A stretch of 48,241 nucleotides of DNA from a virus (lineage: Duplodnaviria; Heunggongvirae; Uroviricota; Caudoviricetes). Under the pieces are notes generated by a model. The model did not search any database, had not been told where the DNA came from, and saw only the letters and a list, made by a program, of their open reading frames with translations. The position numbers and the translations under genes are program-made. The stretch is from positions 1-48,241 of the IMG/VR virus record IMGVR_UViG_2617270956_000008; one strand, 5' to 3'. Position 1 is the stretch's first letter. Each line of letters opens with the position of its first letter. Shown here one piece after another: positions 10,062 to 12,437 of this stretch.

Positions 10062-12437
10062 TCACTGGCCAGACAGCGATGCCAGCATGAAATAATGCAG
10101 CTCATCATTCCTTACAGACATTATTTCACCAGCCTCCCTGACCAGCTTGCGCTCTCCGGTATCGTATTCTTCCATTGTAAGGAGTCCGTCAGAACCAAGC
10201 TCCATACGAGTCCCGTAAACCACTTCATATTCCGCCGGATATTCATCACGACACAAAATACCGTAATCAAAAGCGTCCAGCCCTTCCTCAGAGAAGACCT
10301 TCTGTACGTCCTGAGCAATCACTCCTACATGCCATCTGGCTGCGTTCCCTTTGCTGGACACTGCATCTCTGAAACGGAACCGACAGATATACCCGAGCAG
10401 CTTTCTGGCAACCCTTTTTTCTGCATCCGACAGAATTGTTTCGTCCTGTTTATGAGTCCGGTCTGATGTACTGATACTTCCCGTAGCTGAATAAACCTGT
10501 GCGGGTCGCCATGAGGCATAACCGATCGAATACGTATTATCTGTATAAGGGCGGAGATTTCCTGATGAATCTATGCGCCATCTCTTTTCTCCTCCTGTGG
10601 CATTTGCATCCTGATTCGTTGCAAAATCAATCACTGTCGCTGACCTGAACACAGATGAACCACCGCCAATTACCAGCGTGTTATTCCCCTCTGATGCCTG
10701 TTGGTCAACTACCAGTATTTTATCCTGATTTTTACCTGAACCACTTTTCGAGGCAGCGATAATACGATTAAACTGATCCTCACCATCGCTCTTTTGTGCG
10801 ATGGTGATAACATTGGACCAGATTGCCTCTCTTTGTCGCTGAAAACCATATTCTCCGCTGTCTGTAGTGACAGCTTTATATTTTATTCCACCTTCAGCTG
10901 ACTCCTGCGTTATATAGAATGTCTGGTTATTAGCATTCTTGATGAACACATAATTGTCAGCAGGAATGTCATTTCCACTCAGATCTTTAATCGGTGTCGT
11001 GGTTGTATGCAGACAAAACCATTTCTGACTCACAGAACGCATATATGCCAGAATTTCAGACAGGGATGTGAATACCGTCCCCAACACCGGGTTTACCAAC
11101 CCCTGGGCACTACGGGGAAATGTTCCAATACTGGCATGAGACACATCAAACCCCGTGTACAACCAGGCTGCCTGACGAAAATCAATAGCATCTCTGCCAG
11201 TACTGAACTCTTTCATCAGAACAATTCCTTTCTGATAAGCCTGTGGTAACCCACGCTCCAGAAAGATATAAAGCGAATATATACTGCCGCCGTCGTCAGA
11301 AATACAAATTCCTTCGTTCTCAATGCGCGAAGGTGTAAAACCCTGCCTGGTAAGCACATCTATCATTTTTTGGGGATGAAGAATGGATTCCTGCTGCTTT
11401 ACTCCATCCGGAGAAAAGACCTTAACCCCCTGAAACTGGTTAAATCCGGCTGATGCCCCAGTATTAAAATAGCCACCATAAGAACAGGCAATATAATCGT
11501 CTCCCACAGCAATTCCCTGACGTTTTGTGAAGCGTCTTGCATAGCTGTCTGTGCTTTCCGTGATATATCCGGAATCATGCAACGGTAATGTGAATGTCCC
11601 TGTCCGACGAAACTGAAAATCATACACCGCAAATACTGTGCGGGTGATCAGGCCTCCCACTTCCGGTGCTGACTGTTCAACCACCCAGCGGTTTTTACGA
11701 TAGCTGAACTGGTTGTAAACACCGACATCATGTTCATCAATTAACGGCAATACTGAACCAGAAATTGCCCCATCAAGCGAAAACTGTTTCAGTAATCCAT
11801 TTTCTCCTGACATGAACAAACGTAATCCACCGTAATCCGTTGTCACCACAAGGCCTTCGCTGACAACGCCACGACCTCCATTATCGACATAATAATATCC
11901 CTCATATTCGCCGGATGTTGTGTACTGAACTATAACGTTCCGTGTCTGCTTTGGCTCAACGGTATAACTCAGATAGATTTTTTCTCCTGTCACCACAAAT
12001 CCCTGTGGATACATATATTCCGCACCAGACTGAGCAGCCAGCACCGTATCGTAGTCCGGGAATAATAACGGCAATTCCATTAAGACACTACGGGAATGGT
12101 TAGTGTACAGATTGTTCAATGAACCAGCTTTTACATCCTGTAACCCCAGATTTTCAAGAGCGCGTTCTACCGTGCCATCCGATTTGATATCGCCAAACGG
12201 ATTTTTGCGGCTTAACAGCAGCGCACGAAGCGCGGTAAGCAGCTGGTCGTGCCGCGCCTTCTCCAGACTGGCACCGGAGGCCTCCACCACGCTGCAAAGT
12301 TCTTCCTGCAACATGTCAAAGTAGTCATCATCCAGATCGGTGGCAGGCGTGCCGGTCTGGGGGTTACCACGGGTAAAACCGTTCTTACCCGCGCCGAACT
12401 TATCCTTCTGCGCGGTTTTCGTGTCTATACGATGCAT
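10062..12437 (-). CDS. tail fibre protein with C-terminal intramolecular-chaperone (S74-like) domain, 791 aa
   Basis: Position directly after the baseplate genes; conserved fibre-type N-terminus; C-terminal [12 protein letters not shown]...[11 protein letters not shown] resembles the self-cleaving chaperone domain of tail spikes and fibres. Confidence 0.8.

Follow-up and report, generated by a model that had tools for sequence, protein, structure and literature searches.

The gene considered here encodes a tail fibre or tailspike of 791 amino acids (aa) and lies in a 48,241-nucleotide stretch of DNA (IMG/VR virus record IMGVR_UViG_2617270956_000008, positions 1 to 48,241; hereafter the window), which represents an Escherichia coli prophage. 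Its reading frame is uninterrupted over all 791 codons on the minus strand between positions 10062 and 12437, with the stop codon at 10062-10064, and its ATG begins 3 nt past the stop codon of ymfQ. Upstream of it stands a complete Mu/e14-type baseplate and contractile-tail module, comprising YmfQ/Mu gp48, baseplate J, GP46, baseplate V, the tape measure, tube and sheath. A stretch of 3.5 kb surrounding the fibre gene is 100% identical in E. coli THO-006, which thus carries an identical fibre open reading frame (ORF), and in several FDAARGOS strains; of 5426 complete E. coli genomes, 58, O25b:H4-ST131 strains among them, contain the ORF, or the cassette comprising most of it (see below), at an identity of at least 99%. 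The gene and its parts are as follows:

10062-12437, minus strand: complete tail-fibre/tailspike ORF, 791 aa plus stop (ORF listing)
12444-12447, minus strand: Shine-Dalgarno sequence GGAG, 7 nt upstream of the ATG and within the end of ymfQ (read directly from the sequence)
12123-12437, minus strand: N-terminal baseplate adaptor, aa 1 to ~105, e14 StfP/Mu-like, GC content at third codon positions (GC3) 0.63 (PHROG matches)
11142-12104, minus strand: predicted five-bladed beta-propeller, aa ~112-432, with the invariant residues Q145, E194, K305, Q307, E373 and E375 (AlphaFold2 model)
10833-11129, minus strand: predicted alpha/beta domain of ~100 aa, aa ~437-535 (predicted local distance difference test score, pLDDT, ~80-85; 154 of 160 family members have it beside the propeller)
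10467-10832, minus strand: predicted beta-rich trimeric stalk, aa ~536-657, its C-terminal end like those of endosialidase and T5 pb1 (alignments to sequences in the PDB)
10449-10466, minus strand: codons for Ser658-Asp-Arg-Thr-His-Lys663, predicted nucleophile/base dyad and Thr657/Ser658 cleavage site (residue look-up)
10065-10466, minus strand: Peptidase_S74 intramolecular chaperone domain, aa 658-791 (Pfam PF13884, PDB alignments and profile matches)
9900-12248, minus strand: exchangeable cassette, made up of fibre aa 64-791 and ~160 bp of 3' flank that contains a terminator-like hairpin (identity to a second prophage, locus L004)

Sequence profile analysis of the C-terminal region recovered a match to the Pfam Peptidase_S74 family (PF13884) at residues 658-720 (E = 1.3e-9; 38.6 bits against a curated cut-off of 22), which covers profile positions 1-58 and hence the whole profile. 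Sequence matches to the PDB were restricted to residues ~582-782 of the fibre; the best of these was T5 pb1 with its chaperone (4uw8, E = 8.6e-17), and the others were the GA-1 neck-appendage chaperone (3gud), the stalk and chaperone of the K1F endosialidase endoNF (3gw6, over residues 590-782, with a profile E-value of 1.2e-34) and three further tailspikes or fibres. A profile search of the PDB likewise aligned 9vvr, 3gw6, 7y5s and 4uw8 to the chaperone region at E-values of 1e-29 to 1e-53. The domain opens with the sequence Ser-Asp-Arg-Thr-His-Lys, in which Ser658 and Lys663 show the i/i+5 spacing of the endoNF catalytic dyad, Ser911/Lys916. In a 19-sequence alignment S658 and D659 are near-invariant and the lysine is kept in all S74-positive homologues, while the pattern S[DEN]xxx[KR] is present in 38 of the 40 chaperone-bearing members of the propeller family defined below. 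The profile score above the cut-off, the dyad at the start of the domain, its C-terminal position after a stalk and the lack of an adjacent assembly gene together indicate that the C-terminus is, as judged from its sequence, a genuine S74 intramolecular chaperone.

The mature T5 pb1 chains (4uw7, 5aq5) end exactly at the residue aligned to residue 657 of the fibre, and residue 1 of the released GA-1 chaperone chain (3gud) aligns to S658; the scissile bond is therefore predicted to be Thr657-Ser658. The region immediately N-terminal to it aligns to the stalks of these proteins, with 3gw6 matching from residue 590 and 4uw7 and 5aq5 up to residue 657, so that the alignments of 3gw6, 4uw8, 4uw7 and 5aq5 together run through residues ~590-657. 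By analogy, the S74 domain would trimerise first and template the folding of the beta-stalk (residues ~536-657), after which it would remove itself by a cut of the Thr657-Ser658 bond catalysed by Ser658/Lys663, leaving a mature fibre of 657 aa. A chaperone built into the polypeptide in this way would make a separate Tfa protein unnecessary.

The DNA between the fibre stop codon and the edge of the prophage bears directly on this last point, and its features are:

9334-10061, no strand assigned: spacer of 728 bp without a recognisable gene, GC content 0.39 (RefSeq annotation and family searches of its ORFs)
10024-10052, minus strand: terminator-like hairpin with an 11-bp stem, just 3' of the fibre stop and within the cassette (terminator scan)
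9575-9680, no strand assigned: conserved non-coding segment of ~100 nt, 89-94% identical by blastn to phages HK97, HK75, HK106 and phiP27
9334-9530, no strand assigned: att-proximal phage arm of ~200 bp, common to serU-integrating lambdoid phages
9272-9333, minus strand: 62-nt 3' fragment of tRNA-Ser (att core or displaced tRNA end) marking the prophage boundary (identity to tRNA-Ser)

Nothing is annotated in the spacer in the identical RefSeq record, and its five ORFs (57-67 aa) gave no credible PHROG or Pfam match and no match of the Tfa/Caudo_TAP type. The sequence is better described as a mosaic of the hairpin, the HK97-type segment and the att-proximal arm than simply as non-coding. The hairpin folds as RNA with a free energy of -18.1 kcal/mol (z = -5.2). 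In HK97, HK75, HK106 and phiP27 the counterpart of the segment at 9575-9680 lies, relative to the annotated genes, directly after the last tail-fibre stop codon, and because these counterparts are located just past stop codons in HK97, HK75 and phiP27 the segment is shared non-coding DNA and was rejected as a remnant of a fibre or tfa gene. It may instead mark the end of the late operon or serve as a linker at which fibres are exchanged by recombination; in the window it lies ~380 bp from the fibre stop. The adjoining arm is 95-97% identical to phages ev099, PhiR70_1 and mEp332 and 91% identical to 'phage SerU-LTIIb'. Beyond it, the segment 9272-9333 matches the 3' part of E. coli genes annotated as tRNA-Ser at 100% identity and occurs as a single copy in the window, where ARAGORN found no complete tRNA at this position. 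In other genomes the shared prophage sequence begins at 9272 and extends rightwards, which makes this fragment the prophage boundary, and integration at a tRNA-Ser (serU-type) site is the best explanation.

A tfa gene is also missing downstream of homologous fibres in two other contexts: in one (L004) the S74 fibre is followed by a non-conserved 61-aa ORF and then host genes, and in the other (L005) a lysis cassette directly follows. The first-pass annotation of this DNA, made from the letters and ORF translations alone, had described a 791-aa fibre ending in a domain resembling the auto-cleaving chaperones of tail spikes, followed by about 700 bp of non-coding DNA up to an att fragment in place of a tfa gene. 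The S74 profile search that it proposed as a check gave a match above the cut-off, the PDB matches and the Ser-Asp-x-x-x-Lys signature at the start of the domain agree with it, and the 728-bp spacer ending at the 62-nt tRNA-Ser fragment corresponds to what it had read downstream, with no tfa gene in any of the three settings.

The central 491 residues gave no Pfam match even at E <= 10 and no NCBIfam match, and PDB searches with phmmer and two profiles returned no sequence match for this part of the fibre. It was therefore unassigned at the level of sequence families, as the first-pass annotation had also found it; that annotation had proposed that the region determines receptor specificity or carries an enzymatic activity, and had suggested structure prediction as a means of deciding what it is. 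An AlphaFold2 model built from the 19-sequence alignment predicts residues ~112-430 at pLDDT 80-96 and residues ~440-530 at ~80-85, with a strand pattern of five blades of four strands each, i.e. a five-bladed beta-propeller followed by the small alpha/beta domain. Foldseek comparison of the model with the PDB ranked the receptor-binding proteins of phages NF5, 80alpha, phi11 and P68 first (E = 2e-12 to 7e-9), followed by chaperone structures. The closest fold is thus the platform of the phi11 Gp45 type, which favours the proposed receptor role; the region may in addition be enzymatic. The literature treats the platform of phi11, 80alpha, P68 and NF5 as the receptor-binding module, and in phi11 a solvent-filled cavity of the platform lined by Q165, T211 and Q330 is the proposed site for N-acetylglucosamine (GlcNAc) of wall teichoic acid (PMC4901313). 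Beta-propeller domains have also been described as a substantial and functionally unclear class among the receptor-binding proteins and depolymerases of Klebsiella prophages (PMC12491483).

Three other assignments of the fibre were considered and not retained. The match of residues 119-532 to PHROG 22693, 'glycerophosphoryl diester phosphodiesterase', involves only positions 445-856 of the 968 in the profile, and the name, which in those Staphylococcus proteins most likely describes a different domain, was not transferred. The structure 9vvr_A appeared as a two-domain match, but what it matches is the chaperone and, in other family members, the T7-type adaptor, rather than the centre. The depolymerase Dpo52, in a paper citing ST1UNAM, is an unrelated P22-type beta-helix tailspike.

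Conservation within the propeller was counted over 153 family members with a median identity to the fibre of 28%. Q307 and E373 are conserved in 100% of these, K305 and E375 in 99%, E194 in 95%, P144 in 92%, D419 in 90%, R266 in 88% and Q145 in 86%, and the conserved residues fall where the innermost strands of blades 1, 2, 4 and 5 begin. In the fibre Q145 (in 'PQGF'), E194, Q307 (in 'RQGIAV') and the E373-N-E375-G motif follow one another at offsets of +49, +162 and +228 from the first residue, matching those of phi11 Q165 (in 'MQSF'), T211, Q330 (in 'MQGITY') and E385-A-E387-G at +46, +165 and +220. From these strand positions, motifs and spacings, rather than from superposition, we infer that the invariant residues form the floor of the same axial pocket as in phi11. 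A further motif, 'LP-x-x-FPDY...Y-x-YPQ', leads into blade 1 (fibre residues 117-145) and has a look-alike, 'KPLPIQNPAYLSDITEVGHYYIYTQ', at the start of the phi11 Gp45 tower (residues 445-472), a resemblance that is not significant (hhalign probability 5%).

In the arrangement suggested by these comparisons, three propellers, each with its ~100-aa domain, would surround the axis of the trimer in the manner of the phi11 Gp45 'platform', and the axial pocket floored by Q145, E194, K305, Q307, E373 and E375 would engage a sugar of a surface polysaccharide, such as O-antigen or capsule, with the variable loops around the pocket setting host specificity. We accordingly take surface-glycan recognition at this pocket to be the probable core function of the protein, its ligand being a presumed one. 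Since E. coli has no wall teichoic acid, the ligand must differ from the wall teichoic acid bound by the proteins of the phi11 type.

Searches of a library of 1.84 billion proteins delineated a propeller family of 281 clusters at 50% identity. It is common to tailspikes of E. coli, Salmonella and Erwinia phages and to baseplate receptor-binding proteins of Staphylococcus, Weissella and Bacillus phages. Among isolated phages the relatives, related at sequence level over the propeller and the domain that follows it (22-51% identity, E = 1e-16 to 5e-152), are found in Kayfunavirus podophages (51% and 37% identity), in ~47.7-kb coliphages and Salmonella phages (37%), where they are often labelled 'endo-N-acetylneuraminidase', in Erwinia and Weissella phages and in 31 Staphylococcus phage records (22-31%). 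One of these, the receptor-binding protein of the Staphylococcus siphophage HHU-22, occupies the position of the phi11 receptor-binding protein and has a stem homologous to that of Gp45 (E = 6e-11), the alignment extending as far as the propeller's first strand, where phi11 'AVMQSF' pairs with 'IYPQSF'; over its platform it shares 30% identity with the fibre (E = 4e-56). It thus forms an architectural bridge between the phi11 group and the family of the fibre. The S74 chaperone is present in 40 of 160 family members, 39 of which also have the stalk, whereas members without it end 0 to 772 residues past the propeller (median ~210). Fusion to the self-cleaving chaperone is thus a minority architecture, and is the form that the enterobacterial members have. 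One recognition module, the propeller with its small domain, would in this manner be used across the Gram divide, with the chaperone fusion only in a Gram-negative lineage. Several phage records (H43, H46-H49 and H51, e.g. vB_Eco_ZCEC08, PP213477.1, 32070-33542) contain tailspikes of lytic coliphages and Salmonella phages annotated as 'endo-N-acetylneuraminidase'. This label probably stems from the S74 chaperone and not from the functional domain, and it is unsupported for the centre, which is predicted to be a five-bladed propeller and lacks the GH58 signature.

At the other end of the protein, the N-terminal adaptor matches the tail-fibre N-termini of PHROG 1396, 18834 and 2617 at E-values of 1e-42 to 1e-50 (PHROG 1396 over residues 1-104, E = 1.6e-50), and it would dock the trimer on the baseplate beside YmfQ and baseplate J. 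The gene ymfQ and the 5' end of the adaptor occur at ~95% DNA identity in 1378 of the 5426 complete E. coli genomes, where the distal parts joined to them are of many kinds. The DNA from 12248 to 9900 is 97% identical over 2352 bp to L004, another Mu-like prophage, where the 63 residues preceding it are different. GC3 is 0.63 for residues 1-100 and ~0.40 for the rest of the fibre, the neighbouring baseplate genes having a GC content of 0.57-0.58. Relatives of the cassette ride on yet other adaptors, namely the P2-type collar (PF12571), TSP1/gp66 (PF18668), the P22 head-binding domain (PF09008) and the T7 fibre domain (PF03906). Residues 64-791 with the 3' flank thus have the sequence characteristics of a mobile, low-GC, horizontally exchanged cassette placed on an e14/Mu-type adaptor. 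Taken together, these observations make it likely that the fibre serves a Mu/e14-type contractile-tail prophage as a modular, self-chaperoned protein for receptor recognition, and that its propeller pocket binds a surface glycan.

The architecture is reminiscent of several characterised systems without coinciding with any of them. It shares with endoNF (3gw6) the order of adaptor, beta-propeller, trimeric beta-stalk and S74 domain, the Ser/Lys spacing and the lack of a separate assembly gene, but its propeller has five blades rather than six and it is without the GH58 signature; the endosialidase Pfam family PF12219 scores 13.2 bits against a cut-off of 25 and reaches only the last 37 stalk residues (621-657). 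The fibre is therefore not a GH58 endosialidase. T5 pb1 (4uw8, 4uw7, 5aq5) resembles it in the position of the mature end and in a chaperone starting at serine, whereas pb1 is without a propeller and has its receptor-binding tip at the stalk end, and T5 is a lytic siphovirus. Phi11 Gp45 (5efv), 80alpha gp61 (6v8i), P68 gp17 (6iab) and NF5 gp18 (9m7x) offer in their five-bladed propeller platform the closest fold. However, they combine it with a triple coiled-coil stem and a terminal two-domain tower and lack S74, in place of the e14/Mu adaptor, ~100-aa domain, beta-stalk and S74 domain of the fibre, so that the relation to the Gp45 family is at the level of fold and architecture only. The true sequence relatives are the HHU-22 protein, Kayvirus baseplate proteins and the tailspikes of Kayfunavirus and of coliphages of the HC6/ZCEC08 type, those of the coliphages also having stalk and S74; they differ in their adaptors, which are of the T7 type (PF03906) or the BppU/phi11 stem type, and the Gram-positive ones are without stalk and S74. 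To our knowledge none of these relatives has a biochemically defined ligand or activity. The e14 StfP-TfaP and StfE-TfaE-PinE and the Mu S-U systems share the baseplate module, and the ymfQ-adaptor junction (ymfQ-ycfK in e14) is ~95% identical in DNA. In e14, however, short fibres, tfaP, tfaE and the PinE invertible segment follow the same junction, whereas here a single self-chaperoned cassette replaces the distal part, tfa and invertase. Comparison with glycoside hydrolase families GH43, GH32, GH62 and GH68 and with bacterial glutaminyl cyclases revealed no sequence family match or shared catalytic motifs.

The current public annotation suggests a very different picture, in which the locus is a decayed remnant making no functional fibre. 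The RefSeq pipeline PGAP divides the identical sequence into an 'StfP pseudogene, missing C-terminus' (12137-12437) and a coding sequence of 326 aa (10062-11042) labelled 'tail fiber domain-containing protein', leaving ~1.1 kb of propeller-coding DNA (11043-12136) unannotated in all 58 carrier genomes (e.g. RefSeq record L001, 14044-15137), and a search of the whole protein against NCBIfam returned zero model matches. The same lack of a family model for the centre accounts for the split, with which the NCBIfam result is consistent. All 791 codons are open behind a proper Shine-Dalgarno sequence and start, the catalytic and near-invariant residues are all intact, the 791-aa architecture recurs at 94% identity on another adaptor in a cluster of 365 member sequences, and lytic phages hold full-length homologues. 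The gene is intact and its annotation as a pseudogene plus fragment is wrong, and decay is hardly credible as an account of it. Only marginally less remote is the idea that a separate assembly chaperone exists, either elsewhere in the prophage or as a small spacer ORF such as that at 9843-10022 on the minus strand (59 aa). It would draw on the 61-aa ORF also called right after the homologous L004 fibre and on a weak match to PHROG 38777 (E = 0.023). An ORF of ~60 aa does occur shortly after the fibre stop in both loci (9843-10022 in the window and 6448-6633 in L004), but the DNA identity to L004 stops at window position 9900, inside the 59-aa ORF, and the two predicted peptides differ. The spacer ORFs have no matches to Pfam or to Caudo_TAP/Tfa-type families, the L005 fibre directly precedes its lysis cassette, and S74-bearing fibres such as endoNF and T5 pb1 fold without a chaperone supplied in trans. 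The ORF at 9843-10022 is thus probably not a gene, although a small membrane peptide is conceivable.

Rather more weight attaches to what the propeller does with its conserved residues, and several observations tell against simple glycan binding at the axial pocket. Direct sequence homology to phi11 Gp45 is not detectable (hhalign probability 0.1% with a 19-sequence profile and 5% with a 112-sequence profile, and no PDB sequence match), so that the equivalence of the pockets rests on the fold, short motifs and the bridging HHU-22 protein. In the monomer model the stalk and chaperone come out poorly, with low pLDDT, as expected for folds that form only in the trimer. Moreover, the charged residues are almost totally invariant across E. 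coli, Aeromonas, Psychrobacter, Bacillus and Staphylococcus hosts, which is unusual for a purely specificity-determining site and would suit catalysis or a structural metal site equally well. The propeller might accordingly be an enzyme, a polysaccharide depolymerase or a sugar-modifying hydrolase or esterase, making the protein a true tailspike built like the K1F endosialidase, with K305, Q307, E194, E373, E375 and R266 as its active site, and it would then differ from glycan recognition only in the matter of catalysis. Catalytic residues typically show the kind of invariance across unrelated hosts that E194, K305, Q307, E373 and E375 display (95-100% conservation), the order of domains is like that of endoNF, the structural neighbourhood is rich in enzymes, and homologues fill the single tailspike slot of the T7-like Kayfunavirus phages. 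Halos surround the plaques of vB_Eco_ZCEC08, for which the single predicted tailspike, ORF 60, is a homologue with 37% identity (PMC12001532), though such halos are circumstantial. Against this, no enzyme family in Pfam, NCBIfam or the PDB is matched at the sequence level, identity to the enzymes among the structural neighbours is only 6-14%, and the closest structural relatives are described as binders, with catalysis not reported. The Staphylococcus Kayvirus homologues labelled glycerophosphodiesterase, given the partial PHROG match (445-856 of 968), suggest that the propeller is a targeting module beside an enzyme domain. We regard an enzymatic propeller as a serious possibility with somewhat less than an even chance, and the more specific proposal that its K-x-Q, E-x-E, E and R set defines an uncharacterised family of carbohydrate-active enzymes (depolymerases or de-O-acylases), and no mere lectin, as doubtful.

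Alternatively, the invariant acidic and polar residues could be structural: as happens in olfactomedins and bacterial glutaminyl cyclases, they would hold buried waters or a metal ion inside the central channel, with the receptor bound elsewhere, at the variable loops, the ~100-aa domain or the stalk, in the manner of the endoNF stalk sialic-acid site. Channel metal sites lie where these residues are placed, at the beginning of the innermost strand in blades 1, 2, 4 and 5, and NF5 and phi11 are reported to have different binding-site residues despite their common fold. Yet the phi11 equivalents Q165, T211 and Q330 line the solvent-filled cavity proposed to take up GlcNAc (PMC4901313), and the invariant set contains a lysine and an arginine, K305 and R266, as a cation site typically would not. 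A structural role appears unlikely on balance, and recognition of a surface glycan at the axial pocket is the interpretation that we retain.

Every component of this fibre is of an already known kind, and close full-length relatives are already present, unstudied, in sequenced phages; it is a real but ordinary phage part in a somewhat unusual combination of modules. It nevertheless offers an example of fibre cassettes freed from the Tfa of the host phage and thereby portable between Mu-like, T7-like, P22-like and siphoviral adaptors. The practical value is modest: owing to the mis-annotation in 58 complete E. coli genomes a receptor-recognition domain has been invisible to annotation-based surveys of host range or depolymerases. 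Were the propeller catalytic, the platform of part of the Gram-positive receptor-binding proteins would be so as well, and it would represent a new fold class of depolymerases, of relevance to phage or pyocin-type engineering against ST131-type E. coli.

Two further aspects of the window lie outside the fibre locus. A low-GC island (0.31-0.44) at positions 1-9271 abuts the tRNA-Ser fragment and encodes RepL, two H-NS-family proteins, DUF4755/DUF4756, a macro-domain protein, a ComEA-family protein and a helix-turn-helix regulator. It stands beside the prophage in only a few genomes, the other carriers matching from 9272, which suggests tandem occupancy of the serU-type site by island and prophage. 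Within the prophage, Rfam matches at gathering level were recovered for the sok antitoxin RNA (hok/sok-type), DicF, IsrK and the C4 antisense RNA, the matches being located at 36414-36588 on the minus strand and at 44269-44320, 44554-44630 and 44655-44742 on the plus strand.

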